Shown piece by piece: positions 1 to 12,396 of a DNA stretch of 12,734 nt (position 1 is its first letter; each line of letters starts with the position of its first letter). The stretch covers positions 1-12,734 of the forward strand of contig CALAQQ010000071.1 of assembly GCA_937888485.1 (NCBI GenBank), read 5' to 3'. The notes under the pieces were generated by a model. The model made no database searches. It was not told the origin of the DNA and worked only from the letters and a program-made list of their open reading frames with translations. The stretch comes from an uncultured Clostridia bacterium (GTDB taxonomy: Bacteria; Bacillota; Clostridia; Oscillospirales; Acutalibacteraceae). A program made the translations under genes and the position numbers.

Positions 1-19
1 CGATTTCGTTGTTTGACAT
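1..19 (-). CDS. First 6 codons (MSNNEI...) of a leftward gene transcribed divergently from the Xre gene; product unknown (position suggests a cI-like or other regulator)
   Basis: ATG at 19-17 on the minus strand, preceded by AAGGAGA (complement of 29-35) with an 8-nt spacer. Sits downstream of the leftward promoter at 70-98. Too little sequence to identify. Confidence 0.35.
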
Positions 20-69
20 AGTTGTTATCTCCTTTGTTTTTATTTGTTTGGTGTTTATCAACTGTCTAT

Positions 70-98
70 ATTATAGCACTAAATATTAGTGCTGTCTA
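70..98 (-). promoter_or_regulatory. Leftward sigma-A-type promoter: -35 TAGACA (93-98), 17-nt spacer, -10 TATAAT (70-75)
   Basis: Hexamers read directly on the minus strand. The perfect palindromic operator O1 (75-93) fills the spacer. Confidence 0.55.
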
Positions 99-161
99 TT
101 GACATATTACACTAATTTTTAGTGCAATATTTGTGCAATTTTAGCACTTGATTTTAGTGCA
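75..161. promoter_or_regulatory. Three related 19-bp operators (8-bp arms, 3-bp spacer): O1 75-93 AGCACTAA-ATA-TTAGTGCT (perfect), O2 108-126 TACACTAA-TTT-TTAGTGCA (1 arm mismatch), O3 143-161 AGCACTTG-ATT-TTAGTGCA (imperfect)
   Basis: Read directly. Centres are at about 84, 117 and 152, so spacing is 33 and 35 bp. O1 lies in the leftward promoter spacer. O3 overlaps the -35 and spacer of the rightward promoter. GTGCAAT also recurs at 122, 133 and 157. Confidence 0.6.
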
Positions 162-176
162 ATTATATGATAGAAT
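148..176 (+). promoter_or_regulatory. Rightward promoter of the Xre gene: -35 TTGATT (148-153), 17-nt spacer, extended -10 TGATAGAAT (168-176)
   Basis: Hexamers and the TGn extension read directly. RBS GGAAAGGTGG (186-195) and ATG at 206 follow. Confidence 0.6.
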
Positions 177-205
177 GATTACGCTGGGAAAGGTGGTGCT
201 AAAAT

Positions 206-424
206 ATGGCATTACAGTATAAGATTGATATTATGGATGCGTTGAAAAACAAAGGTTATTCTTCAACGAAAATCCGTGAAGAAAAACTTATCGGTCAATC
301 ATACCTTCAACAAATCAGACACGGTGAATTGGTATCGTGGAAAACTATTGATACTCTTTGCTCCCTCTTGGACTGTCAGGTTGGCGATTTGGTTGAGTAT
401 GTAAAAGACCCCGATGCTCAGTAA
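206..424 (+). CDS. Xre/Cro-C1-type helix-turn-helix transcriptional regulator (72 aa)
   Basis: The ORF has a good RBS. The sequence LKNKGYSSTKIREEKLIGQSYLQQIRHGELVSWKTIDTLCSLLDCQVGDLVEY is typical of small HTH_26/Xre regulators of phages and ICEs. It sits next to an operator-rich divergent promoter region. TAA stop. Confidence 0.85.
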   Translation: MALQYKIDIMDALKNKGYSSTKIREEKLIGQSYLQQIRHGELVSWKTIDTLCSLLDCQVGDLVEYVKDPDAQ

Positions 425-698
425 AGGGCGAACAGAGTTTCTTTAACAAATAACGGCGATTTTTGCACGGAATACACCCGATTTTTACCGAGCTTAAAGT
501 GTGAAGGAAAGCAGTTGTTTTTCTGAACAGGGGTCAGGGGGTATATTTCGGGAGAATCAAAAACACTTTCTCCCTTTGCGGAATTGCGTGGCTTGTTCTC
601 CGTCTGAATGTGATTTTTGTTTCGGATTACGGTTTATCCCGACCGCAAATGATAGAATGATTGTTTCTCCGTCAAGCGAACCAAAAGGAATATAAACG

Positions 699-742
699 AA
701 AAAAGACGGCAAACCGTGAGATTGTTTCTCTTGGTTTGCCGT
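699..742 (-). terminator. Rho-independent terminator closing the leftward module
   Basis: 10-bp stem ACGGCAAACC (706-715) / GGTTTGCCGT (733-742). On the minus strand it is followed by a six-U run (complement of 699-704). Lies 6 nt after the stop at 748. Confidence 0.7.
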
Positions 743-747
743 TTCGC

Positions 748-882
748 TTATTTCCAATCCTTGAATATTTCATCAAGTGCCATATCGAGTGCGGTTTTCA
801 TGCTCTTTTGCATAAAGGCAAGAATTTCCGCCTCGATTATGTTTTTCTTTTTCTTCTTCTTTTTGTCTTTTGGATTCGACAC
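748..882 (-). CDS. Small lysine-rich hypothetical protein (44 aa, GTG start): VSNPKDKKKKKKKNIIEAEILAFMQKSMKTALDMALDEIFKDWK
   Basis: Below the ORF-track length cut-off. GAGGTG RBS 8 nt upstream of the GTG. Starts 2 nt after the TAA of the preceding gene. TAA stop is followed directly by the terminator. Confidence 0.35.
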   Translation of the reverse strand: MSNPKDKKKKKKKNIIEAEILAFMQKSMKTALDMALDEIFKDWK

Positions 883-884
883 TG

Positions 885-1070
885 TTATTTCACCTCACTT
901 GTAAAGATGAATTGAACAGTCTCAGGTTCTTCCGAATCCTGTAATGAGTTGAAGAAATTATCTCTCTGTTCTGTATAGTTTTCTATTGCAGATTTGCCGT
1001 TCATTTGATAATAAAACAAATCGGGAACTTTGCCCTATGCTCTGTTAAACTCCAATAAATCTTTATTCAT
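885..1070 (-). CDS. Hypothetical 61-codon protein with one in-frame TAG (1035-1037): MNKDLLEFNRAxGKVPDLFYYQMNGKSAIENYTEQRDNFFNSLQDSEEPETVQFIFTSEVK
   Basis: The ATG at 1070 overlaps the TGA of the upstream gene (ATGA). The same frame stays open on both sides of the TAG. TAA stop at 885-887. Under the standard code only 11 codons would be made. Confidence 0.45.
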
Positions 1071-1504
1071 ATATTTTCTCCTTCCATAATATCATCAAGG
1101 GATATATTCAATGCACCCCTGTTGACTGTATAGCTTCTCCAATTTTCCTCTTTTGGAATCTGAGTGTTCAGCGGCGGCTAATACAGGCGGATGAAATATC
1201 CTTCTCTTTCTCCGATTTCTTCTTCGATTTCTGCTCTTGTTTTGCTCTTGGCGGTATAAAGAACGTTGAATCTGACGTTATATCTCCGCCTATGGGCTTC
1301 CGCAAGAACTTTGTATTTATTCTCTTTTGGATTTCCCATTGAAGCCCAATGTTCCGCCATTCGGTATAGAATATCTTTGCTTTTACCGATATAAACGATT
1401 TTATTGTTGACGGTTATTGAATAAACCCCCGAACACTAAAACTTTTTACTCCATTCTTGCTCTATGTATTTGTTGTAAATATTCTGTATGTGTAAATTAC
1501 TCAT
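1067..1504 (-). CDS. GIY-YIG domain nuclease (145 codons) with two in-frame TAG codons (1436-1438 and 1178-1180)
   Basis: RBS AAGGAGA sits 7 nt before the ATG at 1504. Translation is MSNLHIQNIYNKYIEQEWSKKFxCSGVYSITVNNKIVYIGKSKDILYRMAEHW...EIEEEIGEREGYFIRLYxPPLNTQIP...MEGENI. The GVY..(9)..YIGKS motif lies after the first TAG. The closing E...I....P.LN motif of the fold spans the second TAG. The real stop TGA (1067-1069) overlaps the next ATG. Confidence 0.7.
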
Positions 1505-1519
1505 ATTCATTCTCCTTTA

Positions 1520-2071
1520 TTAAAATTTAAAATTACCGTGTTCGTCTGTTAAACTCCCACTTGCTTTTGGATTCTTTATATTGTTATAATTTATATTATT
1601 CGAGCTTATAATTTTCTCTATATTATTATGCGTATTTTCAATAACCCCTGCTGAGGTGTATTCAGAATTTGAAGGGGTATATTCATTGTCAGGGGAAGGG
1701 GTATTTTCAATATCCCTCTCCGCACTTTTATAAATCGCATCATAATCAACGATGATTTCGCCTTGTTGACCGTTTTCGCTTGGCTTGTGGATTATCCAAC
1801 CTTTTTCAATCAGCTTTTTTCTTGCACTCTTATACGTTGTTTCTGACATTCCGCATCTGCTCATGACCGTTGCCTCAGGAACGGCAAAACTGCCGTTATC
1901 TGCATTTCCTGTCAGAAATAATATCAGTTTCAGCTAAGCTCCTTCTTTGCCTGTCAGACCGTTAAATATTATTGATTCAAGGTGATTCGTTCTCATTGCC
2001 ATTCCCCACTTTTTATCCCTGTTTTTTTCTCCATTAGCCCTCAGTATCGGTGCCTGAATAAAAACGCCCAT
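1520..2071 (-). CDS. Winged-helix replication-initiator / DnaD-like phage-plasmid replication protein (183 codons) with one in-frame TAG (1934-1936)
   Basis: Translation is MGVFIQAPILRANGEKNRDKKWGMAMRTNHLESIIFNGLTGKEGAxLKLILFLTGNADNGSFAVPEATVMSRCGMSETTYKSARKKLIEKGWIIHKP..., followed by a low-complexity N/S/E-rich tail. The pattern G-x-x-x-x-P-x-x-L ... L(T/S)xxxxxxLxLxL ... wHTH ... L-x-E-K-G-W-I matches phage/ICE replication organiser proteins. GGAGGA lies 9 nt before the ATG at 2071. Alternative starts at 2002 or 1996 are also upstream of the TAG. TAA stop. Confidence 0.65.
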
Positions 2072-2213
2072 AGCCGCAAATCCTCCACTGTTCGCAAATA
2101 AATCTGATATACTGACTTGTATTCATGTGATATTTTCTTGCCTACTCTTGGATTGCTTCCTTTTCTTTTTCAGTCAGGCGAAGGTCAATTTTTTTATTTT
2201 TTATAGTCTTCAT
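2034..2213 (-). CDS. Ribbon-helix-helix (MobC/CopG-like) protein, 59 codons, with one in-frame TAG (2142-2144)
   Basis: Translation is MKTIKNKKIDLRLTEKEKEAIQExARKYHMNTSQYIRFICEQWRICGYGRFYSGTDTEG. The beta strand (IDLRLT) and helix A precede the TAG, and helix B (NTSQYIRFI) follows it in the same frame. RBS GGAGAG is 5 nt before the ATG at 2213. An in-frame alternative start at 2264 (MSDISFKRKF...) exists. TAA stop at 2034-2036. Confidence 0.6.
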
Positions 2214-2283
2214 TTTATCTCTCCTTTTACTTGTAAATTTTCTTTTAAATGAAATATCAGACATTGTCCTACCTTCTAAATAT

Positions 2284-2312
2284 ATTATACAAAAATTTTT
2301 TGTTAAAATCAA
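2284..2312 (-). promoter_or_regulatory. Strong internal leftward promoter: -35 TTGATT (2307-2312), 17-nt spacer, -10 TATAAT (2284-2289), driving the TAG-containing module
   Basis: Near-consensus hexamers read on the minus strand. Lies directly downstream of terminator-like hairpins and upstream of the RHH gene. Confidence 0.6.
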
Positions 2313-2366
2313 AAAAGAGCGGTCGCCGCAAACAAAAGCACCGCTGAACTCGAGTGAATTCAGCGG
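2311..2366 (-). terminator. Tandem terminator-like hairpins after the paralogue pair
   Basis: Minus-strand RNA: CCGCUGAA-(10 nt)-UUCAGCGG (2341-2366) followed by UGCUUUUGUUUG. Then GCGG-CGA-CCGC (2319-2329) followed by UCUUUUUU. Confidence 0.5.
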
Positions 2367-2403
2367 CGGACTTGCTTTATTAAAATACATGGATTTGTTC
2401 CTT

Positions 2404-2925
2404 TCAGGCGGCAGGGTCAACTATTTCATTTTCTTCAGTTGCGTTATCGTTTTCTGCAACTGCGTTATCGATTTTTATAACTGCGTTATCTTTTTCCTCT
2501 TGGACTTCATCAGAGTTTTTGTCAACAGTCGGCATACCGTAATTTACGATTTCAGGATATTTCTTCAAAAACCAATTTTTAATTTCAGGATAACGGTATG
2601 CTTTTGAATGACATTCACTGATAAAAAGTTTATCATCAAGTTCTTTGAGAACAGCATCTCTTGTTTCAACAGGCTCAAATCTGTTGATATATTCTTTCAT
2701 ATAATCATAAGTTAATCCTTTGTAGTGTTCCTGATTGCTGTTAGCATTTATATTCTCACGGATAACCACATCAAAATTCGGGAAACTCTTTACATACTCG
2801 ACAAGCGTCTTATATTCCTTGTTTTTAGGGTTTTTTGCCTTTTCCGCAAACCATTTATAAAGAATAATTTGTTTGTTTGCGTAATCAATTCTTGCAGGGT
2901 TTATTCTTTTTCTTGACTTAGCCAT
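2404..2925 (-). CDS. Hypothetical protein, paralogue B (173 aa from MAKSRK...), with an acidic C-terminal tail of three heptad repeats
   Basis: RBS GGAAGGTGA is 5 nt before the ATG at 2925 (the ORF-track GTG at 2934 overlaps the RBS). Shares YKGL(T/G)YDYMK(E/R)YI and WFLxxYPEI motifs with the upstream gene. TGA stop. I recognise no family. Confidence 0.8.
   Translation of the reverse strand: MAKSRKRINPARIDYANKQIILYKWFAEKAKNPKNKEYKTLVEYVKSFPNFDVVIRENINANSNQEHYKGLTYDYMKEYINRFEPVETRDAVLKELDDKLFISECHSKAYRYPEIKNWFLKKYPEIVNYGMPTVDKNSDEVQEEKDNAVIKIDNAVAENDNATEENEIVDPAA
2440..2502. repeat. Three tandem 21-nt repeats, each starting TGCGTTATC, encoding DNAVIKI / DNAVAEN / DNATEEN on the minus strand
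   Basis: TGCGTTATC is found at 2440, 2461 and 2482, exactly 21 nt apart, inside the 3' end of paralogue B. Confidence 0.7.
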
Positions 2926-2947
2926 GATATTCACCTTCCTTTCTTAA

Positions 2948-3394
2948 TTAAGCCACAACTCTAAGCTTGGCTTTCTTTTCTTCACGAGCCTTTGCTCTCT
3001 TGGCTTTGATTTCCTTAATTTCCTCATCAGTTTTGTTGTTGAATTCTTCTATTTCAGGGTATGTTGCCAAGAACCACATTTTAATGTCACCATAAGAGAA
3101 TTCTTTGATAGTAACATCTCTTTCACCTTTTTCATTAAGACCCCTGAGCTTATAGAACATTTTCAGGTTTTCTTCCTTATTTTCATGAGCTTCGATGTAT
3201 CGCTTCATGTAATCATAACCAAGACCTTTGTATGTGTCTCTCTTGGTTGAGTTTGCTTTTACAACAATTTCATAACCTGTGAATATTGTGCGGAACTTTA
3301 CAAGTTCTTCAAACTTTTCACTTCCGAACTTTCCTGCTTCCTTTGATTCAGCCTTTGTCATTACAATAACTTTCTTTTCGTGATTTGCATACAT
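2948..3394 (-). CDS. Hypothetical protein, paralogue A (148 aa)
   Basis: RBS AAGGAGA is 6 nt before the ATG at 3394. Motifs TYKGLGYDYMKRYI and MWFLATYPEIEEF are colinear with paralogue B. Lys/Glu-rich C-terminus. TAA stop. Confidence 0.85.
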   Translation of the reverse strand: MYANHEKKVIVMTKAESKEAGKFGSEKFEELVKFRTIFTGYEIVVKANSTKRDTYKGLGYDYMKRYIEAHENKEENLKMFYKLRGLNEKGERDVTIKEFSYGDIKMWFLATYPEIEEFNNKTDEEIKEIKAKRAKAREEKKAKLRVVA

Positions 3395-3405
3395 AATTTT
3401 TCTCC

Positions 3406-3463
3406 TTAATAATAGGCGTTAGGTCGCCACCCTATTTTTATTATTCAGCGGTAAGTCGCTACC
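3406..3463 (-). promoter_or_regulatory. Structured 5' leader with a duplicated stem-loop module just upstream of the paralogue A RBS
   Basis: Plus-strand modules GGCG-TTAGGT-CGCC-ACC (3415-3431) and AGCG-GTAAGT-CGCT-ACC (3447-3463) are 32 nt apart. The closing pair differs by a compensatory change (G-C versus A-T). AATAGG (3411-3416) / CCTATT (3431-3436) can form a larger helix that abuts the RBS. Confidence 0.4.
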
Positions 3464-3558
3464 TTATTTCAGCACTTCAGGTTTCACCGTTTGCCTCTTG
3501 GTTTCGTTCACTCCTTTCAGGCGTTTTGTTTTGGTGTGTTCCCCTCTGCTGTGTCTAC

Positions 3559-3567
3559 AGTATATCA
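3559..3567 (-). promoter_or_regulatory. Candidate extended -10 promoter (TGATATACT on the minus strand) for the paralogue operon; weak -35
   Basis: Plus-strand AGTATATCA at 3559-3567. It would give a leader of about 160 nt. No good -35 hexamer was found. Confidence 0.3.
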
Positions 3568-3605
3568 CGCAACCACAATTTATCAGTCGTTATAAATGCA
3601 AAAAT

Positions 3606-3647
3606 AAGAAAGATACAAACTTTTTCAAAAAAAGTTGTATCTTTCTT
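3606..3647. terminator. Long AT-rich inverted repeat (19 bp with one bulge); bidirectional terminator/insulator or recombination/transfer-related hairpin
   Basis: AAGAAAGATACAAACTTTTT (3606-3625), c, AAAAAAAGTTGTATCTTTCTT (3627-3647). T-rich tracts flank it on both strands. Confidence 0.4.
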
Positions 3648-3655
3648 CTTAAATA

Positions 3656-3695
3656 GTTGTTATTAGGTTGTTATAAAGGCTTATAAATGTTGTTA
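3656..3695 (+). repeat. Helically phased direct repeats GTTGTTA at 3656, 3667 and 3689 (offsets 11 and 22 nt); candidate arm-type recombinase/accessory-protein sites or iterons
   Basis: Read directly. TTATAAA is also duplicated (3671-3677 and 3681-3687). Lies about 190 nt from the att core. Confidence 0.4.
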
Positions 3696-3714
3696 AAAAC
3701 TTATTACATACCTG

Positions 3715-3743
3715 TTGATTTTATAATAGAATTGTTTTATACT
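3715..3743 (+). promoter_or_regulatory. Outward-facing promoter-like element: -35 TTGATT (3715-3720), 17-nt spacer, -10 TATACT (3738-3743)
   Basis: Hexamers read directly. It points toward the tRNA fragment and terminator. The AT-rich context raises the chance of a false positive. Confidence 0.35.
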
Positions 3744-3854
3744 GTTATTGATTTAGAGATGAGGTCTGAGTTAATGTTAAACAAGACCTCTACATAATTA
3801 AGATTCCTAAAACTTGTTTAGTGTCAAGGGGTTGTTGGGGGTATCGTCTCCAAA

Positions 3855-3877
3855 ACAAGACCGAGAATCGGTCTTGT
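3855..3877. repeat. Perfect 10-bp inverted repeat ACAAGACCGA-GAA-TCGGTCTTGT abutting the att core
   Basis: Read directly. It ends 4 nt before the tRNA-derived sequence begins. Confidence 0.6.
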
Positions 3878-3880
3878 GTG

Positions 3881-3926
3881 CTTGGTAAGGATGAGGTCGG
3901 CGGTTCAATTCCGCCTAGCAGCTCCA
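3881..3926 (+). pseudogene. 3' portion (about 45 nt) of a tRNA-Thr(GGU) gene without its 5' half; interpreted as the displaced tRNA end at attR
   Basis: Colinear canonical parts are present: anticodon loop TTGGTAA (U33, GGT, A37) at 3882-3888, stem strand GGATG, variable loop AGGTC, T arm GGCGG-TTCAATT-CCGCC (3899-3915), acceptor strand TAGCAGC, discriminator T, and CCA (3924-3926). It closely parallels known bacterial tRNA-Thr(GGU) 3' halves. The partner strands CATCC and GCTGCTA and a D arm are absent upstream. Confidence 0.75.
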
Positions 3927-3929
3927 GAT

Positions 3930-3961
3930 AGCACTTCCTTTTGGAAGTGCTTTTCTTTTTT
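3930..3961 (+). terminator. Rho-independent terminator of the native tRNA gene
   Basis: AGCACTTCC-TTTT-GGAAGTGCT (3930-3951) followed by TTTCTTTTTT. Confidence 0.8.
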
Positions 3962-3962
3962 G

Positions 3963-3991
3963 TTGACAAAAATCGGGCAATGATTTATTCT
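3963..3991 (+). promoter_or_regulatory. Promoter of the GxGYxYP gene: -35 TTGACA (3963-3968), 17-nt spacer, -10 TATTCT (3986-3991)
   Basis: Hexamers read directly. RBS AAGGTGG lies at 4000-4006 and the ATG at 4013. Confidence 0.45.
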
Positions 3992-4012
3992 GTATTATAA
4001 GGTGGTGTTTTT

Positions 4013-5680
4013 ATGACAAGATTTACAGCATTCTTTATTTCGATAATACTGTTTTTCATTTCATGCTTTACGCCCGCAACTCCTGAAGCAAAACCTGAGC
4101 AGGAGCTTTTACAACTCGGCGATATCTGCATTGACTACACACTTTCAGACAAGCTTTATGTTCTTGATTCATCAACATTCCAAAGCAAAGATGAACGTCA
4201 CATGGCGGTAGGTCTTCAGGGCGTTGTTGCAAAAACCGCTCCGCTCATATATATAGTCACAAATTCAGCAGATAATTATTATCTTGAAGAGATTGAAAAA
4301 AGCGGTATTGAACTTATACGCAAAGATGAAAACGGTGAAAATTGGACCGTCAAATCTCTTCTCAACAAATTCAAATCATACATAACCGATTCGGGTTATG
4401 TTCTTTACCGTGAAAGCGAAAAGGCAGAAGGTCTTAACGCCGCAACAAATCTTGCGGCTCTTTACGGATGGTTGCCCGTACCTGAAAGCCTGAAACAGCT
4501 TGCAGTTGATGCAGGTCTTTCTCTTAAAGAGGATTTTTCAGATGACACATACAACTTGGTTTTTCAGTGGAGTTTTTTTGAAAAACATAAGGATGAGTTC
4601 AATTATAACGCACTTGCCAGCCTTAAATATGAGGTAACGGGCATTCGTGACCTTGCAATTCAGCAAGGATTTTACACATTCTATATTGACGATAACGAAG
4701 ACACGACTCTTCTTCGCGGTCATGTTATGAAACATGCAGGAGATAACGTTCCCGTTCTCGGATGGGTTAAATACGAGGTTGCATTCGTTGAGCAGGCATC
4801 AAAAAACGGCAATATTGCACTCCCCTCAGATCACAGCCACAATAACAGTTACCTTGCTTCGTTCAGATATGATATTCCCGAACAAAAGCACAGTGTTACA
4901 AAGGAATACACAGACACAACCAAACATTACTGCGCAATCGTTTTCAGCGACGGCGACAATCTTCAATGGATTCAGAACGGATACAGCGAATATTATCAAA
5001 AACTTGCCCTCGAAAATCAGTTCCCCATAACATGGTCATTTCCGCCACTGCTCCAAGAATTTTCACCTATTACTGTCAAAAGAATATATTCCGATGCAAC
5101 TGAAAACGATTATTTCATGGCAGGTGTTTCGGGCGCAGGATATATTCATCCGACCGAATACCCCTTTGACGCTCTCGGAGGATTCACCGATTTAACCGCT
5201 TCCTCAATGATGAAGAGCAATCTTGAATATGTTCAGATTCTCGACGGCACTCCGGAAAATAAAATTGACGATAAAATCCTTACCGACAGACTTGAATACT
5301 ATGCAAGATACGATAACATCAAGGGCGGTGTTTTAAGCCTTGATCCAACAAGATATGAGGGCGGCAAGGGCATGATTTATTTCGTTAACGACAAGCCCTT
5401 TATCAGCTACCGTCTTTCTCTCTGGCATCCAGACGGCGAGGGTGCAAGCGTTACAAACGAATGGCTTGACGAGCAGGCAGCAACAGTCAATTTCTACCCC
5501 GCAGATATTAAATCAATCAACGGATACAGCGTTATCAATGTTCATCCGTGGACCGTCAGCATTGAAAATCTCGCATATTTCGTAAGTCAGCTTGACGAGG
5601 ACGTTGTTCTCGTAACGCTTGATGAGCTTATGGAAATGATTGACAAGAATATTCCTCACGAATATGCAAAACCGGAATAA
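4013..5680 (+). CDS. GxGYxYP-domain protein (putative secreted/anchored glycoside hydrolase family), 555 aa
   Basis: N-terminal hydrophobic signal/anchor FFISIILFFISC (possible lipobox). GVSGAGYIHP matches the GxGYxYP signature. Good RBS and TAA stop. Confidence 0.8.
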   Translation: MTRFTAFFISIILFFISCFTPATPEAKPEQELLQLGDICIDYTLSDKLYVLDSSTFQSKDERHMAVGLQGVVAKTAPLIYIVTNSADNYYLEEIEKSGIELIRKDENGENWTVKSLLNKFKSYITDSGYVLYRESEKAEGLNAATNLAALYGWLPVPESLKQLAVDAGLSLKEDFSDDTYNLVFQWSFFEKHKDEFNYNALASLKYEVTGIRDLAIQQGFYTFYIDDNEDTTLLRGHVMKHAGDNVPVLGWVKYEVAFVEQASKNGNIALPSDHSHNNSYLASFRYDIPEQKHSVTKEYTDTTKHYCAIVFSDGDNLQWIQNGYSEYYQKLALENQFPITWSFPPLLQEFSPITVKRIYSDATENDYFMAGVSGAGYIHPTEYPFDALGGFTDLTASSMMKSNLEYVQILDGTPENKIDDKILTDRLEYYARYDNIKGGVLSLDPTRYEGGKGMIYFVNDKPFISYRLSLWHPDGEGASVTNEWLDEQAATVNFYPADIKSINGYSVINVHPWTVSIENLAYFVSQLDEDVVLVTLDELMEMIDKNIPHEYAKPE

Positions 5681-5687
5681 TAAAAAC

Positions 5688-5706
5688 GGGCGGCTCAATG
5701 CCGCCC
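5688..5706. terminator. Bidirectional terminator between convergent genes
   Basis: GGGCGGC-TCAAT-GCCGCCC. An A-run lies upstream and a T-rich tract downstream on the plus strand. On the minus strand it is followed by GTTTTTATTATT. Confidence 0.7.
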
Positions 5707-5712
5707 ATAATG

Positions 5713-6225
5713 TTATTTTGATTTGACAAACTTATAAATTATCGGCGGCAAAACACAGGCAACAATCAATACAGTGCAAAAAATAATATGCGCCTCAGAA
5801 AAGCCCGCAGGTCTTACATTTCCGTAGAACTCTCTGAAAAAGCCGTCAAAAACAGATAATGCAGGCATGGCCGGAATCAAAAACAGCAAAAGAATAAATG
5901 AAATATAATCCTCAAATCCAAGACCTAAATATTGATTTATCCAAAGAAAAAGAAACGCAACCGAAGGAACAACTAAAAATAAATATGAACCGAATAACAT
6001 TGCGTCTTTCGATTTTCTTTTGCAAACAACAGCAATGACAATCGAATACACAAGAAAGAGAAAAGGAAATATCAGAGTTATCAGTCTGCTTTCCGTGGGA
6101 AGATAAATATAGTCAACCAAAAAAGGCATTCTTCCTGCTGAAAAAACTCCCAAAGCCCAGACCGCAAGCGTTATTGCGGCGCCGAGAAAAAACTGTTTTG
6201 TGTCCGAATGTTTTTTATTTGCCAT
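5713..6225 (-). CDS. Hypothetical integral membrane protein (170 aa, several predicted TM helices)
   Basis: RBS AAAGGAG before the ATG at 6225. Hydrophobic segments run throughout (LGAAITLAVWALGVF, LITLIFPFLFLVYSIVIAVV, LFLVVPSVAFLFLWI, FILLLFLIPAMPAL, IIFCTVLIVACVLPPII). No family recognised. Confidence 0.7.
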   Translation of the reverse strand: MANKKHSDTKQFFLGAAITLAVWALGVFSAGRMPFLVDYIYLPTESRLITLIFPFLFLVYSIVIAVVCKRKSKDAMLFGSYLFLVVPSVAFLFLWINQYLGLGFEDYISFILLLFLIPAMPALSVFDGFFREFYGNVRPAGFSEAHIIFCTVLIVACVLPPIIYKFVKSK

Positions 6226-6331
6226 ATTACCACTCCTTTCCTTATCTTAACTATATCACGGCAAGAAATTTATTGTGTTACGGAAATATTAATATTGAAT
6301 TACAAATATTTACAAAACAAAAGGTGAAAAA

Positions 6332-7015
6332 ATGAAAACCGAAATAAATATCATAGCTCATATTCACACCGATTTTTCGTCAAAATTCGGTATACCCCGT
6401 CAGAGCGGACTTGTTGACGAGCTTGAAGCAACGATAGTTTTTGAACCCGAATACCGCAATCCCGATGCGCTGAGAGGCATTGAAGAATATTCGCATTTAT
6501 GGCTTCTGTGGCAGTTTTCGGAATGCATGGACAAGGAATGGACTCCGACGGTCAGACCGCCGAGACTCGGAGGCAACAAAAGAATGGGCGTTTTTGCAAC
6601 ACGCTCCCCTTTCAGACCTAATCCGATAGGTCTTTCAAGCGTAAGATTTCTCGGCATTGAAAAAACGGAAAAGTACGGTTATGTTCTTCGTGTTGCAGGT
6701 GCGGATTTGCTTGACGGCACTCCGATTTACGACATAAAGCCATATCTTCCCTACGTTGACTCACATCCCGAAGCAAGCAACGGCTTTGCACTTGATGAAA
6801 AGGATGGCAGACTTACCGTTGATTTTCCTGATGAGCTTTTAAATATGATTCCGAGCGAAAAGCAATCGGCATTGATTGCAGTCCTTGCGCAGGACCCCCG
6901 ACCCGGTTATCAGGATATTCCCGAAAGAATTTACGGAATAGAATTTGCGGGGTTTGACGTGAGATTCAAGGTTGAAAACTCTGTTTTATCAGTTATTGAA
7001 ATCAAAAACATATAA
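6332..7015 (+). CDS. trmO: tRNA (N6-threonylcarbamoyladenosine(37)-N6)-methyltransferase TrmO (TsaA/YaeB family)
   Basis: Family-typical motifs: FGIPRQSGL, YSHLWLLWQF, GVFATRSPFRPNPIGLS, GADLLDGTPIYDIKPYLPY. 227 aa, RBS AAGGTGA. Confidence 0.88.
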   Translation: MKTEINIIAHIHTDFSSKFGIPRQSGLVDELEATIVFEPEYRNPDALRGIEEYSHLWLLWQFSECMDKEWTPTVRPPRLGGNKRMGVFATRSPFRPNPIGLSSVRFLGIEKTEKYGYVLRVAGADLLDGTPIYDIKPYLPYVDSHPEASNGFALDEKDGRLTVDFPDELLNMIPSEKQSALIAVLAQDPRPGYQDIPERIYGIEFAGFDVRFKVENSVLSVIEIKNI

Positions 7016-7046
7016 AAAAACCGAGGTTTTAAAGCCTCGGTTTTTT
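7016..7046. terminator. Bidirectional terminator between trmO and the convergent operon
   Basis: A-run, CCGAGGTT-TTAA-AGCCTCGG (7021-7040), then T6. Confidence 0.75.
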
Positions 7047-7047
7047 G

Positions 7048-8673
7048 TTACGGTTGCAGAACAATCGGATGGTCTTCACTGATATGCTCGATTGTTATAA
7101 AATTATTTCTCTTTGCATATGCCCACTTCATTCCGAACGCCTTACAAGCGCCGTCAACGGGCATATAAAGCTGACCTTCGTTGCCTCTGAAAACTTCCGC
7201 GCCGAGGTCAACATCGCCTTTATTTGTCACGGCAATACTGCTTCCTTCGGTGAAAGTAACTTCTCTTCCGTAGATTTTAAGAGTGACCTTTCCCTTTTCA
7301 CGGATATCTTCACCGCCTGCAAATCTTATCATAGTTGCAAAAGCGATATACCACTCGCCGTCTTTGCATACAGCGGGAGTTGACATATTGCAAAGAGCAA
7401 GATCGACACCTTTATAATACACTCTCGTTCTGCCTTCGCCGAAAACCGGAGCAACTCTGTAAGGTCTGATTTCGTCTTTTGATTTATCAATTGAGAATTC
7501 ATCAATGATTCTGCCGTCGTTAAGCTCGGAAATAATTGATATTTTATCGCCGTCAACCTCAACAAGAGCAAAAGAGGAAACCTGTTCCTCATGAGGATAG
7601 AAAGATGCGTGCCATACTTTGTCGGTTGTTTTTGTTCCGGGAGGATTGAAATTTGCGTTGCCGAGTTCATAATGAATCGTGCCCTGCGAGGGTCTGTCAA
7701 AAATCTCTTCGTTCTTTATAGGAAATGAACGGGAGAAGTTATGCTCATGACCCGAGAAAAGAATATCGAGCATTTCCATTGATTCGCGCATCATGGGATA
7801 ATCATCATCGTTTGCAAGGTTGGGACCTGCATAATAAACGGGGAAATGCTGAGTGCCGAGTTTCCAGGTTTTATCGCTTTTTGCAATATCTTCTATCGCC
7901 CATTCATTCATAAGCTCGGGTTCATTAACACCGAAAACATTGAAATGAACGTTGCCGTAATCAAATGAATAAATTTCCGTCTGCCAACCCTCAGGACCGT
8001 TCTTTGGATATGAATATTCAAGCTGGGTATTGAAAAACTCAGCGGGCTCGGCATAGTATCTGTTAACCTCGTTGGGAAAATAATGCTCAAAGCCTCTGTT
8101 ATCATGGTTTCCGCAGGTCATCATATAGGGCAGATGCTCCATGATACCTTCCATACCCTCAAACATTGCGTTCCACTGAATTTCATGCTGACCGCAGTTT
8201 GTATTGTCGCCTGCGGTCAGAATAAACTTTACATCGGGGTATTTTGCGAGAATATCTTTGAGGAACTTGTTGAGAGTTGAATAATCGGGATTATAATGGT
8301 CGTTATCCTTTTGGTGGTCGGAAATCGCAATAAATCTGAACTTTGTGAGGTTTTCTTCCTCGGTATCAAACCAATATTCTTTGCTTCTGTTTTCCGCACT
8401 TCCGCAGGTATAATAATATCTTGTTCCGGGTTTCAGATCTGACGGAGTTGCCCAGAAAATATTGCTCGTGTTGACATCACTCTTGAACGGCTTCACGATT
8501 GCGTCCGCACGCTTTTTTTCTCCGTCTTTTTCGTAATACTCAACGTAACCTTCGGTAACATCAAGGCTTGAACGCCACGTTACCGTCATTGAGGTTTTGG
8601 CATCTCCCGAAATGCTGACCATAATATGGTCGGGCTTTTCGGTTGCAAATCTGTAATTGGGTGTTCTTTCCAT
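7048..8673 (-). CDS. Metallophosphoesterase with a purple-acid-phosphatase-like N-terminal domain and a C-terminal copper-amine-oxidase-N-like (stalk) domain, 541 aa
   Basis: Metallophosphoesterase motifs ISDHQ, TAGDNTN, CGNHDN and SGHEHNF. N-terminal TVTWRS...GTRYYYTCGS. No obvious signal peptide. RBS AAGGTGA. Confidence 0.85.
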   Translation of the reverse strand: MERTPNYRFATEKPDHIMVSISGDAKTSMTVTWRSSLDVTEGYVEYYEKDGEKKRADAIVKPFKSDVNTSNIFWATPSDLKPGTRYYYTCGSAENRSKEYWFDTEEENLTKFRFIAISDHQKDNDHYNPDYSTLNKFLKDILAKYPDVKFILTAGDNTNCGQHEIQWNAMFEGMEGIMEHLPYMMTCGNHDNRGFEHYFPNEVNRYYAEPAEFFNTQLEYSYPKNGPEGWQTEIYSFDYGNVHFNVFGVNEPELMNEWAIEDIAKSDKTWKLGTQHFPVYYAGPNLANDDDYPMMRESMEMLDILFSGHEHNFSRSFPIKNEEIFDRPSQGTIHYELGNANFNPPGTKTTDKVWHASFYPHEEQVSSFALVEVDGDKISIISELNDGRIIDEFSIDKSKDEIRPYRVAPVFGEGRTRVYYKGVDLALCNMSTPAVCKDGEWYIAFATMIRFAGGEDIREKGKVTLKIYGREVTFTEGSSIAVTNKGDVDLGAEVFRGNEGQLYMPVDGACKAFGMKWAYAKRNNFITIEHISEDHPIVLQP

Positions 8674-8675
8674 AA

Positions 8676-9983
8676 TTATTTCACCTTGATTTTAAATAAT
8701 CTTGCACCGTGGGAATTGACTTCTGCCGAAAATTCACCGTCGGTTACCGCATATTCTTCATGCTTCCACATATCCCATACGGAATAATTTATACCGCCGA
8801 TCGCAATATCGTTGATATCAAATTTTATGTTTCTGACTTTATCATCGGTATTGAAAAGAGCAACATATTTACAGTTTTCACCCTTTGAAGTCCAGATAAT
8901 TTCGCCCTTGCCGTCGGTTTCGTTTCTGCTGAACTGTCTTGCACCGCTTGAGTTTTTGAGCATATCGATAAGCTCTCTGTTCTGAAGAAGAGAAAGAGTG
9001 AACTCATCGTTTTCACGCATTTCAGCACCTATCATGAGCGGTGAACGGAAAATTCCCCAAAGAGTCATCATCGTTATCTGCTCATCATGAGTAAAACGGG
9101 TATATCTGTTTCTGTACTTTTCGAGCTCTTCGGTCTTCTGAATCCTGCCTATGGGAAGCATATCACAATCGGGCCATGCACCCGGCTGAACATATTCCTG
9201 CCATGCATAGCAACGCTCAAACATTGCATGAAGCTTGCTCCATTCATCCCAGAAATCGCCCGTCATTCTCCAGAGATTTGCGTTTGCGGCAAGATGTTCA
9301 TGCTCCCATACGGGTGCGGGACCGGGTGAAAGGCTGAGAACCATATCTCTGCCGCACTTATCAATTGCTTTGCGGAGCATTTCAATTTCTTCTCTGCCCG
9401 AATAAGGCTTATCAGGCCACATCTCTGTATTGGCAATATCATCGCATTTGATGTAGTCGACACCCCACTCGGCATAAAGTTCAAAAATGGAATCGTAATA
9501 TTCCTGCGCGCCCTTTTTATGAGTTTCAAGACCGTACATATCGGGATTCCACGGACAAATTGACGAAGGCTTTGCAATATCTTTTGCAGTGACGCCTTCA
9601 CACTTGATTTTAGTATTCATGTGTGCAGCCTGTCTGGGAATGCCTCTCATGATATGAATACCGAATTTAAGCCCGAGTGAGTGGATATAATCAGCAATAG
9701 GTTTGAAGCCTTTTCCGCCTGCTGAGGAAGGAAATCTTTCAACAGAGGGAATAAGGCGTGAATATTCATCCATGCAAAGGGGCGCAAAATAGTGGTAATA
9801 AAAGCTGTCGGCTGTCGGTTCTGACCACTGAATATCGCAGACAACATATTCCCAACCGTAATCCTTAAGATGCTCAGCCATATAGTCGGCATTTGCAAGA
9901 AGCTGTTCCTCGTTAACGGCAGCACCGTAGCAGTCCCAACTGTTCCAACCCATGGGAGGAGTGGGGGCAAGTCTTTTGTGCAT
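8676..9983 (-). CDS. Glycoside hydrolase family 27 enzyme (alpha-galactosidase-like), 435 aa
   Basis: PPMGWNSWDCYG N-terminal signature and the VDYIKCDD nucleophile-region motif. Starts 2 nt after the upstream gene ends. Confidence 0.85.
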   Translation of the reverse strand: MHKRLAPTPPMGWNSWDCYGAAVNEEQLLANADYMAEHLKDYGWEYVVCDIQWSEPTADSFYYHYFAPLCMDEYSRLIPSVERFPSSAGGKGFKPIADYIHSLGLKFGIHIMRGIPRQAAHMNTKIKCEGVTAKDIAKPSSICPWNPDMYGLETHKKGAQEYYDSIFELYAEWGVDYIKCDDIANTEMWPDKPYSGREEIEMLRKAIDKCGRDMVLSLSPGPAPVWEHEHLAANANLWRMTGDFWDEWSKLHAMFERCYAWQEYVQPGAWPDCDMLPIGRIQKTEELEKYRNRYTRFTHDEQITMMTLWGIFRSPLMIGAEMRENDEFTLSLLQNRELIDMLKNSSGARQFSRNETDGKGEIIWTSKGENCKYVALFNTDDKVRNIKFDINDIAIGGINYSVWDMWKHEEYAVTDGEFSAEVNSHGARLFKIKVK

Positions 9984-9985
9984 AA

Positions 9986-10810
9986 TTATCTTTCCTTTCG
10001 ATAAACTCTTATCTCAAACTCTGCCTGAGTTTCGAGATAGTCAAGATTATTTATTTTTTGTTGGTCTTCAATTCCTGTTTTATAATAATAAGGTGTCATT
10101 TTGAAAAGGCTCTGTATCATTTCATTGGAATTCATCAGAAACTGTGTTTTGGTCTGACAAGTTTTAACACAGCTGAAGCCGTCAATTTCCGTATCGGGAA
10201 CATCGTTGAGATAAGGCTTTTCATATATTGCGGCTTTCAGTCCGAAAAGATGCTTTTCAAGCGGAATTATCTTTATAAGATAACCTCCTGTTTTCAGAAC
10301 ACGGTGAAATTCTCCGTCTGCATCGGGTGAAAAGATATTCAGCACCGCATCGAAGCGTTCGTCGGCAAACGGCAAATCAAAAAGACTTGCAACGGCGAGA
10401 GGAATTCCGCTTTTCCTTTTTGAGGCATATTCAAGCGCATCCTTCGAAATATCAACGCCCGAAACAAAAATCTCTTTTCCTTTTTCGGAATAATACTGCT
10501 TCAGACCCGATGAATAATAACATTCACCGCAGCCCGCATCGAGAAAATCTCTGCCGTCGGGAAGATATTTTTCGCAGATTTCACACAGTTCATCACGCAG
10601 AAAACCGTAATAACCCGAATCGAGGAAATCGCGTCTTGCCCTGACCATGAGGCGGTCGTCGCCGTGGCGTTTTGCGGAGGATTTCTGCGACTGCAACAAA
10701 TTCACATAGCCGAATTTTGACTTATCGAAACAATGCCCCTTTTCACAGCGGTAAAGCCTTTCTTCTTCTGAAAGCTCTTTTTTGCATACGGGACAAATAA
10801 AATTTATCAT
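9986..10810 (-). CDS. rlmA: 23S rRNA (guanine-N1)-methyltransferase, RlmA family
   Basis: Zn-finger CPVC...C.KGHCFD, then FGYVNLL, GDD..MV.AR..FL, and SAM motif LDAGCGECYY. The ATG overlaps the upstream TGA (ATGA at 10807-10810). Confidence 0.8.
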   Translation of the reverse strand: MINFICPVCKKELSEEERLYRCEKGHCFDKSKFGYVNLLQSQKSSAKRHGDDRLMVRARRDFLDSGYYGFLRDELCEICEKYLPDGRDFLDAGCGECYYSSGLKQYYSEKGKEIFVSGVDISKDALEYASKRKSGIPLAVASLFDLPFADERFDAVLNIFSPDADGEFHRVLKTGGYLIKIIPLEKHLFGLKAAIYEKPYLNDVPDTEIDGFSCVKTCQTKTQFLMNSNEMIQSLFKMTPYYYKTGIEDQQKINNLDYLETQAEFEIRVYRKER

Positions 10811-11673
10811 TTCTTAACCCTGTATTTCTCAATTTTTTTCATCATTGATCTGCCGACGTCATGCATGAATCTTTCGCATGCGGGAAGCAAATCATCTGGG
10901 AAGCCGTGGAGAAAACGGTCCGCTTCATACGTAAAATTACCCTTATAGTCGATTTCTCCGAGTGCGTGAAGAATATCGTCCCAATCCATTTCCATCATAT
11001 AGGGAAGAGTGTGGCTGTCATTAAAATTATCGTTATCATGGATATGAAGGCAACCGAGTCTGCCGTCCATCTGACGAATCATTGCGCCCGCATTATCGCC
11101 GACAAGACCGCAATGACCGAGGTCAAGGCAAGCGGTGAAATTATCGGGATTCAGAGCGTCAACGTATCGGTTGAAATCCTCTGCAACGGAGCAAACGTTG
11201 GGAACGATTTTGTTAAGCTTATTATCCCATCCCCACATATTTTCGAGCGCAATTTTAACGCCGTATTCCTTGGCATAAGGTTCGAGAGAATGATAAAGCT
11301 CCATGTTACGCTCAAACTGGTCTGAGCTGAACTGCACGGGATGAACAACGCAGATTTTTGCATCGAGAATGCCTGAAATTTCAAGCGCTCTCTTGAGCTT
11401 TTCAAAAATCTGTACGGTATATTCACTGTCAAATTCCTTTGCGCTGGGGAAAGGTGCATGAGCCTGCTCAAAGGTTACACCGTAATAATCGGCAATCTTC
11501 TTCAATGCATTAATGTGGTTTTTATAAGCTGACGTGTTGAGCACGTCGTTATCATCGTCCATTTTGAACATGGAATAGTCTATTCCGTCAAAACCGCTTT
11601 CGCAGATAATACGAACTGCCTCGGCATCTCCGAGACGTTCGGAGATTCTTTCCGTCTGATTAACAAGCTTCAT
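10807..11673 (-). CDS. Sugar phosphate isomerase/epimerase (xylose-isomerase-like TIM barrel family), 288 aa
   Basis: Family-like blocks KIALENMWG, CLDLGH and LHIHDND. RBS GGAGG is 8 nt before the ATG. First gene of the four-gene leftward operon. Confidence 0.85.
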   Translation of the reverse strand: MKLVNQTERISERLGDAEAVRIICESGFDGIDYSMFKMDDDNDVLNTSAYKNHINALKKIADYYGVTFEQAHAPFPSAKEFDSEYTVQIFEKLKRALEISGILDAKICVVHPVQFSSDQFERNMELYHSLEPYAKEYGVKIALENMWGWDNKLNKIVPNVCSVAEDFNRYVDALNPDNFTACLDLGHCGLVGDNAGAMIRQMDGRLGCLHIHDNDNFNDSHTLPYMMEMDWDDILHALGEIDYKGNFTYEADRFLHGFPDDLLPACERFMHDVGRSMMKKIEKYRVKK

Positions 11674-11705
11674 ATATTTGCCTCCTATTATAAGGTCATG
11701 AGAAC

Positions 11706-11734
11706 ATTATAACAGTTAACTCTCTTTTCTACAA
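11706..11734 (-). promoter_or_regulatory. Operon promoter: -35 TTGTAG (11729-11734), 17-nt spacer, extended -10 TGTTATAAT (11706-11714)
   Basis: Read on the minus strand. A GTTAAC-centred site (11715-11720) lies in the spacer. Confidence 0.55.
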
Positions 11735-11737
11735 GTT

Positions 11738-11749
11738 ATTGTTAACAAT
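11738..11749. promoter_or_regulatory. Perfect 12-bp palindrome ATTGTTAACAAT; candidate TetR operator
   Basis: Lies between the divergent TetR gene and the operon promoter, 3 bp upstream of its -35. A related half-palindrome AACAGTTAAC is at 11711-11720. Confidence 0.45.
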
Positions 11750-11820
11750 TTTTTAATTGACTTTTAAATAAAAATATATTAAATTATTATCATTGGGAAA
11801 TTATAAAGGGGAGAAAGAAT

Positions 11821-12396
11821 ATGGCTAAAGCAGAATACAGAAGTTCAATACGTTCAAAAAACCTTATCAAAAAGGCTTTGGCTAAGCTGATTCACGAAAA
11901 GGATATAGCAAAAATCACTGTTTCGGATATTATCAGAGAAGCCGATATAAGCCGCGGCACATTCTATGCTCATTTTTCAGATGTCAATTCTGTTGTCACA
12001 CAGATTGAAAGCGAAGAAATGAACAGTCTTATGGATTTTGTTGATAAATACGGTTTTGAAAATATCAGCAAAACACCAAACAACTTCATTGCCGTCATAT
12101 GCGAATATATGATGCGTGATATGGAGTATTACCGTATGCTTGCAATGTCAAACATACTCAACAACTTTATCTGGCGTCTTGTAAATGTTTACTATGAAAA
12201 ACTGCTTGAGATAGTTTTGTCACTCAGACAGGATATTGACAGAAACGAAGCTGAAACTTACCTTATTTATATCACCTCAGGTGCAAAAACAGCTATTCTC
12301 AGCTGGCTCAACGGTGAAATAAAGTGTACCCCGGAAGAAATCGGCGAAAGACTCGGAAAGCTTATCAAACTGTCACAGACTTATTTTGAAAGATAA
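11821..12396 (+). CDS. TetR/AcrR family transcriptional regulator, 191 aa
   Basis: N-terminal HTH ITVSDIIREADISRGTFYAHFSD. RBS GGGGAG. Divergent from the carbohydrate/rlmA operon. Confidence 0.9.
   Translation: MAKAEYRSSIRSKNLIKKALAKLIHEKDIAKITVSDIIREADISRGTFYAHFSDVNSVVTQIESEEMNSLMDFVDKYGFENISKTPNNFIAVICEYMMRDMEYYRMLAMSNILNNFIWRLVNVYYEKLLEIVLSLRQDIDRNEAETYLIYITSGAKTAILSWLNGEIKCTPEEIGERLGKLIKLSQTYFER

Follow-up and report, generated by a model that had tools for sequence, protein, structure and literature searches.

The DNA described here, called the window throughout, is the whole of a 12,734-bp contig (CALAQQ010000071.1) from a metagenome-assembled genome (MAG) of an uncultured Clostridia bacterium, and its left part belongs to a small integrated element. 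On its minus strand, five in-frame TAG codons are distributed over four consecutive genes, which encode a ribbon-helix-helix (RHH) protein, a replication initiator (Rep), a GIY-YIG nuclease and a 61-codon open reading frame (ORF), s61. A first-pass annotation of the sequence had listed these five codons and had proposed that the amber codon is reassigned or suppressed here. Translation of the minus strand bears out all five positions, and it likewise confirms that the four genes are free of frameshifts and of in-frame TAA and TGA, and that a TAA or TGA forms the true end of each. Ribosome-binding sites had been noticed at the first segment of each gene, and a GGAG-type site is indeed present at each of the four gene starts. 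The span of the GIY-YIG gene needed correction, to 1067..1510, with a TGA end that overlaps the next start codon (ATGA).

The first TAG of a gene falls at codon 12, 24, 25 or 46. When the read-through proteins were compared with profiles, Pfam alignments above the curated cut-offs spanned three of the five TAGs (NikA-like, residues 5-37; HTH_36, residues 43-93; GIY-YIG, residues 27-113); the TAG at codon 25 of the nuclease gene lies just ahead of the matched stretch, and s61 has no Pfam match. The host genes to the right had been described as full length under the standard code, and the eight ORFs at 4013-12396 are indeed without in-frame stops and end in TAA (seven) or TGA (one). Given the codon content of the 450 codons concerned, the probability that five random nonsense hits would all be TAG is 0.003-0.009, a figure that, for the window by itself, is suggestive and not decisive.

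In-frame TAGs recur well beyond this contig. L001, a 19.8-kb contig from a different ENA assembly, matches window positions 430-5670 with 100% identity, all five TAGs included, and a protein profile of the GIY-YIG nuclease recovered 67 loci in GTDB species representatives, nearly all of them Oscillospirales from animal or human guts (Acutalibacteraceae, Oscillospiraceae, Faecousia, Ructibacterium). TAG-bearing copies are present in three cultured isolates (L028, L064 and L065), the isolates being Hominicoprocola fusiformis CLA-AA-H188 (JBBNGO01), Pseudoflavonifractor phocaeensis An901 (NZ_JADYTU01) and Oscillibacter valericigenes An860 (NZ_JAFBIV01). In-frame stops were counted by comparing the read-through proteins with the loci by tblastn, in 75 sequences. 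The four families together hold 165 TAG, one TGA and no TAA: 121 TAG and the single TGA in GIY-YIG (73 loci), 13 TAG and no other stop in Rep, 17 TAG in RHH (13 loci, with two TAGs adjacent in L007) and 14 TAG and no other stop in s61 (17 loci). The last gene of the operon, s44, is conserved in 23 loci and has one TAG altogether. These counts are in keeping with the earlier argument that random decay would hardly leave TAG lesions only.

Outside the families of this operon no in-frame TAG was found in about 31,000 codons. The element proteins p91, DUF6809, resolvase, WYL and p176 show no in-frame stop at all in some 26,000 aligned codons (p91 has no TAG in 37 loci), and the 5,354 codons of p148 contain just two TAA, close to the end of one weak paralogue alignment. 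A homology-free scan, in which TAA and TGA alone served as stops, detected TAG in 64 of 69 non-redundant modules (median 3, maximum 7) and found TAG confined to the same operon in distant relatives too; the five TAG-free variants are L033, L036, L038, L052 and L058. It is a single operon that is recoded, and this holds for the whole family of elements.

The segments behind the TAGs are under purifying constraint. Downstream of the first TAG, the ratio of nonsynonymous to synonymous substitution (dN/dS, Nei-Gojobori) of the four genes is 0.14-0.21 in ten pairs, some with dS 1-1.6, and is similar to that of the upstream parts; in Rep, lineages whose dS exceeds 1 have a TAG at an identical codon position. 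The first-pass annotation had allowed for downstream segments without constraint, and constraint is what was found, from which we conclude that these segments are translated and the proteins functional. Frames that stay open to dS of about 1, the near absence of other stops and the standard code of the host flanks (below) thus support amber reassignment or suppression as originally proposed. Within GIY-YIG, the TAGs have a median relative position of 0.35 compared with 0.62 for CAA and CAG (P = 7e-5, uncorrected for phylogeny).

For the question of which amino acid TAG encodes, all GIY-YIG genes were rebuilt from DNA. TAG occurs in 29 columns of the alignment (110 cells), almost all of them variable and hydrophilic. 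Related elements had been suggested as the place to look for TAG or CAG at the same columns; TAG recurs in them, and several TAG-free relatives have CAG (glutamine, Q) at a TAG site, as in the pairs RIAQHY/RMAXHY, IRQYRP/IRXYRP, GQIVY/GXIVY and AEAQRKGH/AEAXRKGH. Among the nearest-neighbour residues at TAG columns, glutamate (E) is the commonest at 28%, Q accounts for 17% (background 3%, hence an enrichment of about five-fold) and lysine (K) for 10%. In GIY-YIG, the one family counted, TAG makes up 26% of CAA, CAG and TAG codons together. Gln therefore appears to be the best assignment for TAG, with Glu also possible: the Gln assignment of the first-pass annotation gains from the enrichment of Q and from the CAG/TAG pairs and loses from the greater frequency of E. 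Since nearest neighbours are E more often than Q, the assignment leans in part on precedent, namely that all TAG reassignments documented in phages of standard-code hosts are to Gln (Borges et al., bioRxiv 10.1101/2021.08.26.457843). We rejected as evidence the Q at TAG sites of 145-aa 'full-length' database homologues, where the DNA has TAG and the gene caller read Q; those proteins were called with TAG = Q and are not independent. Logan/ENA protein sets (proteins P0001-P0057; L004 1168-1605) list the genes intact with Q at the TAGs, and NCBI/JGI records of the same family split them into fragments of 45-111 aa. An apparent homologue in a database may for this reason conceal recoding or imitate it.

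Table 1. Features of the element in the window, with cargo loci of relatives in the last row
Feature	Position	Strand	Remarks
p91 (91-aa gene), first codons MSNNEI...	1..20	-	start same as in L001 5725-6000; contig ends here
Operator-like repeats, 3 x 23 nt, TTAGTGC four times, partly palindromic	70..160		between repressor and p91, which are divergent
Cro/CI-type HTH repressor (HTH_26), TAG-free, stop TAA	206..424	+	Pfam PF13443, E=1e-10
Hairpin, 16-bp arms, closing the TAG-bearing operon	706..742	.	inverted repeat
s44, 44-aa lysine-rich ORF, last operon gene	748..882	-	TAG-free here
s61, 61-codon ORF	885..1070	-	TAG at 1035-1037 (codon 12); ATG overlaps GIY-YIG stop (ATGA)
GIY-YIG nuclease, 147 codons	1067..1510	-	PF01541, 28.8 bits vs cut-off 22.6; phrog_1111 endonuclease
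GIY-YIG TAGs	1436-1438; 1178-1180	-	codon 25, before GIY...YIG motif; codon 111, before PPLN
Rep, winged helix-turn-helix (wHTH) replication-initiator-like protein, 183 codons	1520..2071	-	TAG at 1934-1936 (codon 46); Pfam HTH_36
RHH protein (NikA-like), 59 codons, first operon gene	2034..2213	-	TAG at 2142-2144 (codon 24)
Terminator-like hairpin after p176, then promoter-like site	2284..2368	-	hairpin 2368-2339; promoter-like site 2312-2284 (TTGATT-17-TATAAT)
p176, TAG-free, p148 paralogue	2404..2934	-	no Pfam or PHROG family
p148, TAG-free	2948..3394	-	2-4 tandem paralogues in relatives
Attachment (att) core, 3' 46 nt of tRNA-Thr(GGU), anticodon loop to CCA	3881..3926	+	host terminator follows
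Cargo loci in relatives	L006 12584-13855; L050 12405-13793; L004 3886-6978; L053 7763-10906; L065 8188-11130		

The architecture of the element was read from five loci (L001, L004, L006, L007 and L009), the window itself (Table 1) covering only the tRNA-distal half. Starting at the att site, the order is p148 and p176 (2-4 copies), a terminator and promoter-like site, the operon RHH-Rep-GIY-YIG-s61-s44, a hairpin, the HTH_26 repressor on the opposite strand, the operator repeats, p91, DUF6809, a 195-aa serine resolvase, a variable cargo slot, a WYL regulator, a tyrosine integrase and the intact tRNA; in this clade everything from DUF6809 to the integrase and an intact tRNA-Thr thus lies beyond the left end of the window. 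Elements range from about 5 to 12 kb, with 8.2 kb from attL to attR in L009. The small integrated element of the first-pass annotation therefore stands as regards integration, with a size of some 8 kb that runs off the window's left end; of the mobilisation genes also proposed, only the NikA-like RHH, an accessory protein, is recognisable, and a relaxase domain was not detected among the element's proteins. Pfam and PHROG comparisons of these proteins revealed no virion, packaging or lysis genes. Traits reminiscent of satellites are the integrase, the repressor, a replication module of the element's own, the lack of structural genes and a size within 5-15 kb.

Across clades the att core consists of the 3'-terminal 45-48 nt of a tRNA, which is Thr(GGU) in this clade and Val, Ala or Pro elsewhere. 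In L009 and L010 an intact tRNA-Thr lies next to the integrase; its 3' segment equals the core in the window, bar a few T-arm bases, and both of these loci have exact 46-nt attL/attR repeats. A closely related genome (L080) has an empty site, in which an intact tRNA-Thr is followed by the same terminator and GxGYxYP gene, and this places the right element boundary at window position 3926. The integrase ORF of L009 is TAG-free. The slot between the resolvase and WYL genes differs in content from relative to relative and includes an Mrr_cat type IV restriction-like nuclease, an IetA-like AAA ATPase, surface proteins of about 1000 aa with SLH or Listeria-Bacteroides repeats, and lipoproteins; judged by these genes, it behaves as a cargo and defence hotspot.

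Consensus scans, the only basis for the terminator and promoter calls, put a terminator-like hairpin and a promoter-like site between p176 and RHH, so the TAG-bearing genes appear to form their own transcription unit. The repeats between the repressor and p91 genes overlap divergent promoter-like sites and are probably operators; no TTAGTGC motif lies near the promoter of the TAG-bearing operon. The RHH protein matches Pfam PF21983 with 36.2 bits (cut-off 27, residues 5-37), and Rep matches replication initiation, DnaD-like and O-like PHROG families with E values down to 8e-11. In the nuclease, residues G100, E103, I107, R108, P112 and N115 are invariant in all 38 sequences of the alignment, and the motif VYSIT...VYIGKS is kept where aligned (Y48 and G50 at least 70%), some database sequences being N-terminally truncated. 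Within the Rep gene, at 1626-1714 on the minus strand, there are three 20-nt direct repeats (GATATTGAAAATACCCCTTC and variants), spaced by 24 and 45 nt. At the protein level they specify a repeated TPS-rich peptide, and as DNA they look like iterons, by analogy with origins located inside lambda-O-type initiator genes. The proteins p148 and p176 are about 31% identical and belong to a family confined to these elements, present in 2-4 tandem copies and always TAG-free; it has no match in Pfam, PHROG, PDB sequences or PDB folds, and the AlphaFold2 model of p148 has a pLDDT of 80.

What decodes the TAGs was sought in the elements and in the host DNA that flanks them. ARAGORN detected no tRNA-CUA in the window or in any scanned locus, the tRNAs that it found being ordinary host genes, many of which are integration targets. 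A direct scan of four elements for a CUA anticodon stem-loop yielded nothing credible, Rfam gave no ribozyme or tRNA match save a sub-threshold tmRNA-like match to the att region, and no Pfam domain of code-change machinery (release factor RF2 or an aminoacyl-tRNA synthetase) is present among the element proteins. The first-pass annotation had coupled recoding to a suppressor tRNA-CUA: the recoding is supported, and by ARAGORN the tRNA is not there in cis. The means of decoding must consequently come from elsewhere in the cell, in trans, unless a mechanism has escaped detection. As for the hosts, their code is the standard one, since 21 of 206 host-flank ORFs of at least 200 aa (about 10%) end in TAG, the others in TAA (116) or TGA (69). 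Among the element's genes outside the module, TAG is the terminal stop in 4 of 111. The base 3' of the in-frame TAGs resembles that after CAG and offers no special leaky context. No pyl genes were seen in the approximately 1 Mb of flanking DNA, in which no specific search for them was made.

The element end and att core (3828-3926, plus strand) can be folded into a cloverleaf-like RNA of 99 nt (-44.4 kcal/mol, z = -4.7) with an acceptor stem GGGGUUG/CAGCUCC that includes a G3:U pair like that of tmRNA. It matches the Rfam tmRNA model below threshold (25.9 bits, E = 8.7e-8), and ARAGORN calls its homologue in L010 a 96-nt 'tRNA-Lys(ttt)'. As a suppressor in cis we rejected this fold: it has no CUA, its hairpin loop varies among close relatives and it is clade-specific.

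Searches for a helper phage were made in GenBank and IMG/VR, and among the phages in these collections none closely shares the integrase, p91, p148 or Rep. Scans of viral contigs with p148, Rep and the integrase singly gave no match, and by tblastn the integrase and p91 found only distant matches among phages, at 35% identity or less. When the element was compared by blastn with GenBank phages and PLSDB plasmids, the tRNA-Thr fragment alone matched; the apparent 'phage' MT836333 was rejected as bacterial DNA containing a tRNA-Thr. The IMG/VR matches to the GIY-YIG profile comprise two standard-code phages with a distant homologue and a 96-kb contig (L075), and none of them qualifies as a helper. 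That contig, UViG_3300045988_073130, is classed as viral and has a Rep and GIY-YIG module with in-frame TAGs at its end (9400-10700), preceded by 9 kb that are TAG-free; it may be a host contig bearing an island or a large phage bearing the module. Scans for the excised or packaged form with exact att-junction patterns gave no viral-contig match and found one ordinary integrated copy in metagenomes. Pfam, PHROG and fold searches found no homologue of terS or of capsid-remodelling genes.

We interpret the five TAGs as sense codons of a conditionally translated operon (RHH, Rep, GIY-YIG, s61 and s44), an explanation that, taken whole and with a helper phage as part of it, we rate at slightly better than even. 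TAG is strongly inferred to be decoded, probably as Gln, in a special cellular state, one of efficient amber decoding, that the cell normally lacks. In the ordinary, standard-code state, each gene would yield a short inactive N-terminal fragment, and replication and nuclease activity would be locked off while the maintenance, integration and cargo genes were still expressed; once a decoder appeared, full-length RHH, Rep and GIY-YIG would be made and the element would replicate. The likeliest source of the decoder would be a suppressor tRNA from a TAG-recoded temperate phage, such as one of the 'Topaz' clade (Oscillospiraceae, tRNA-Thr). That it arrives in trans from such a phage, so that the element is a satellite-like island unlocked by the code switch of its helper, we likewise consider somewhat probable; the element would then act as a satellite or plasmid-like island for which the code switch itself is the trigger. 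The exclusion of in-frame TAG from the genes needed in the integrated state, compared with its use for a quarter of the Gln-like codons in GIY-YIG, argues for two translation states and for conditional, efficient suppression. The bias of TAG to the first 40% of GIY-YIG fits a lock, because a lock that abolishes activity is expected to be early.

It is also possible, though we are doubtful, that the amber codons serve as a tripwire, in a satellite or defence island that translates Rep, RHH and GIY-YIG only once a TAG-recoded phage supplies the suppressor tRNA. The code switch of the phage would then start island replication and possibly a nuclease attack on, or parasitism of, that phage.

Several observations weigh against conditional translation with a helper phage. 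The scans made turned up no helper phage, no suppressor tRNA and no copy in excised or packaged form; among phages of GenBank and IMG/VR, none closely shares the integrase, p91, p148 or Rep; and the element has no recognisable gene for packaging or for redirecting capsids. E outnumbers Q among the nearest neighbours at TAG columns, and the bias to early positions is uncorrected for shared ancestry. A suppressor tRNA can be detected in only 40% of the phages that recode TAG (Borges et al., bioRxiv 10.1101/2021.08.26.457843), and an unrecognised mechanism intrinsic to the element is for this reason possible.

The principal rival, which has a real but minor chance of being right, does without a helper: decoding would be self-contained or supplied by the host, either through low-level near-cognate readthrough by tRNA-Gln (CUG), which would serve to attenuate the expression of a toxic nuclease and initiator, or through a suppressor of the host or a protein of the element that impairs RF1. 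The lack of a helper in the phage and viral-contig searches speaks for it, as does the share of recoded phages, 60%, in which a suppressor tRNA likewise goes undetected (Borges et al., bioRxiv 10.1101/2021.08.26.457843); the restriction of TAG to one module fits an attenuator as well as a lock, and p148 and p176, the paralogues without TAG, may have a function yet to be discovered. However, a 138-aa protein can have as many as three TAGs, and two are adjacent in the RHH gene of L007, so that the yield of leaky decoding would be negligible, and the proteins are strongly constrained nonetheless (dN/dS 0.14-0.21). The base after TAG, moreover, is like that after CAG and not a leaky context, and a constitutive host suppressor would leave unexplained both the complete avoidance of in-frame TAG in the other element genes and the 10% of host stops that are TAG. 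That TAG stands for a residue other than Gln (pyrrolysine, Glu or Lys), inserted by a host system, we consider improbable. The alignment of TAG columns with E and K besides Q would fit, and many Clostridia lack glutaminyl-tRNA synthetase (GlnRS) and make Gln-tRNA through Glu-tRNA, which also counts in its favour; yet Q is the residue most enriched over background, several near relatives differ by CAG to TAG alone, every documented reassignment of TAG in phages of standard-code hosts is to Gln, and pyl genes went unseen in the flanks, albeit without a specific search.

Pseudogenisation and artefact, in turn, are effectively excluded. A decaying element that had collected nonsense mutations, for instance by C-to-T deamination of CAG, is very improbable: CAG to TAG is a single transition, and for the window alone the chance figure given above would leave some room for it, but the 75 sequences hold 165 TAG against one TGA and no TAA or frameshift, and the CAA to TAA and CGA to TGA changes that the same mutational process would yield are absent. 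Identical TAG positions are, besides, kept in synonymously saturated lineages, and dN/dS after the TAGs stays at 0.14-0.21 at dS of about 1. An assembly or base-calling artefact has a smaller chance still, as the same TAGs are present in the separate ENA assembly and the phenomenon is found in Logan, JGI and NCBI assemblies as well as in the three isolate genomes.

Temperate gut phages with recoded TAG have been described in the 'Topaz' (Oscillospiraceae) and 'Garnet' (Prevotella) groups, and Topaz phages measure 22-24 kb, lie at tRNA-Thr of Oscillospiraceae and have TAG-free integrases (Borges et al., bioRxiv 10.1101/2021.08.26.457843, a preprint later published in Nature Microbiology). In-frame TAG is read as Gln in such phages, which write one module in the alternative code and leave their lysogeny genes, like the integrase, without TAG. 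The same authors propose that two codes separate lysogeny from lytic growth, and they speculate that recoding may let a phage sense a co-infecting phage via its suppressor tRNA. Our element shares with Topaz the standard-code host, the host group, the tRNA-Thr att site, the TAG-free integrase and the two-code partition. It differs in size (about 8.2 kb in L009) and in having no virion or lysis gene, whereas Topaz recodes structural and lysis genes; unlike both Topaz and Garnet, it recodes only a replication operon of four to five genes, has no decoder of its own and, in the searches made, showed no sequence relationship to any phage record. Like the lytic phages that use code 15 (crAss-like, Lak, Agate), the element would read TAG as Gln in a host where TAG is a stop, and its recoded genes are grouped in a module. 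Those phages, however, often carry a tRNA-CUA and sometimes RF2, whereas the element has no tRNA, and they recode late genes, with replication genes affected variably, whereas the element recodes its replication genes.

With satellites (PICI/SaPI, P4-like, PLE, PICMI) the element has in common its small size, a tyrosine integrase at a tRNA site, a divergent repressor/operator region, its own replication initiator with iteron-like repeats, the lack of structural genes and a cargo slot of variable content in which defence-like genes occur. In known satellites, the helper is sensed via protein-repressor interactions or helper-driven transcription, whereas this element would use in-frame stops; its helper dependence and packaging would be putative, and it lacks recognisable terS or capsid-remodelling genes. 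Amber mutants of lambda (Oam and Pam on supE or supF hosts) provide a laboratory parallel, in which a UAG in an initiator gene makes replication dependent on a suppressor tRNA (Gln or Tyr). Those are engineered or selected conditional lethals, whereas the arrangement in the element is natural, involves several genes, and is conserved and evolving across a family. Full-text searches of the literature returned no case of a satellite, integrative island or plasmid with recoded stop codons, and no satellite described as being gated by stops within its reading frames.

In the literature searched, stop-codon recoding is a trait of phages; here it affects one operon of a minimal, non-viral integrative element, so that alternative coding also occurs in a small island. 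Because the element has no suppressor, it implies reliance on another resident of the cell or on an unknown decoding mechanism, and a dependency on a decoder in trans would bear directly on the published idea of recoding as a sensor or lock. If the tripwire reading were true, this would be the first mobile element to sense another via the genetic code and not via a protein or promoter. There is a practical side as well: annotation with translation table 11 breaks the genes at these loci into fragments or turns them into supposed pseudogenes, and protein sets made with table 15 silently show Q. The three cultured isolates with such elements give bench access to the question.

Two further observations concern the edges of the element. 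Left of about position 398, the window and L001 are unrelated (window 1-398 compared with L001 5342-5740), L001 having another HTH_26 repressor allele and other operators; the pattern suggests that two elements, identical elsewhere, have recently exchanged their immunity regions. On the host side, a 170-aa ORF without a Pfam match (5713-6225, minus strand) lies between the GxGYxYP and TrmO genes and is missing from the otherwise collinear genomes L080 and L081, where TrmO is directly adjacent, and it may be a small insertion in the host.

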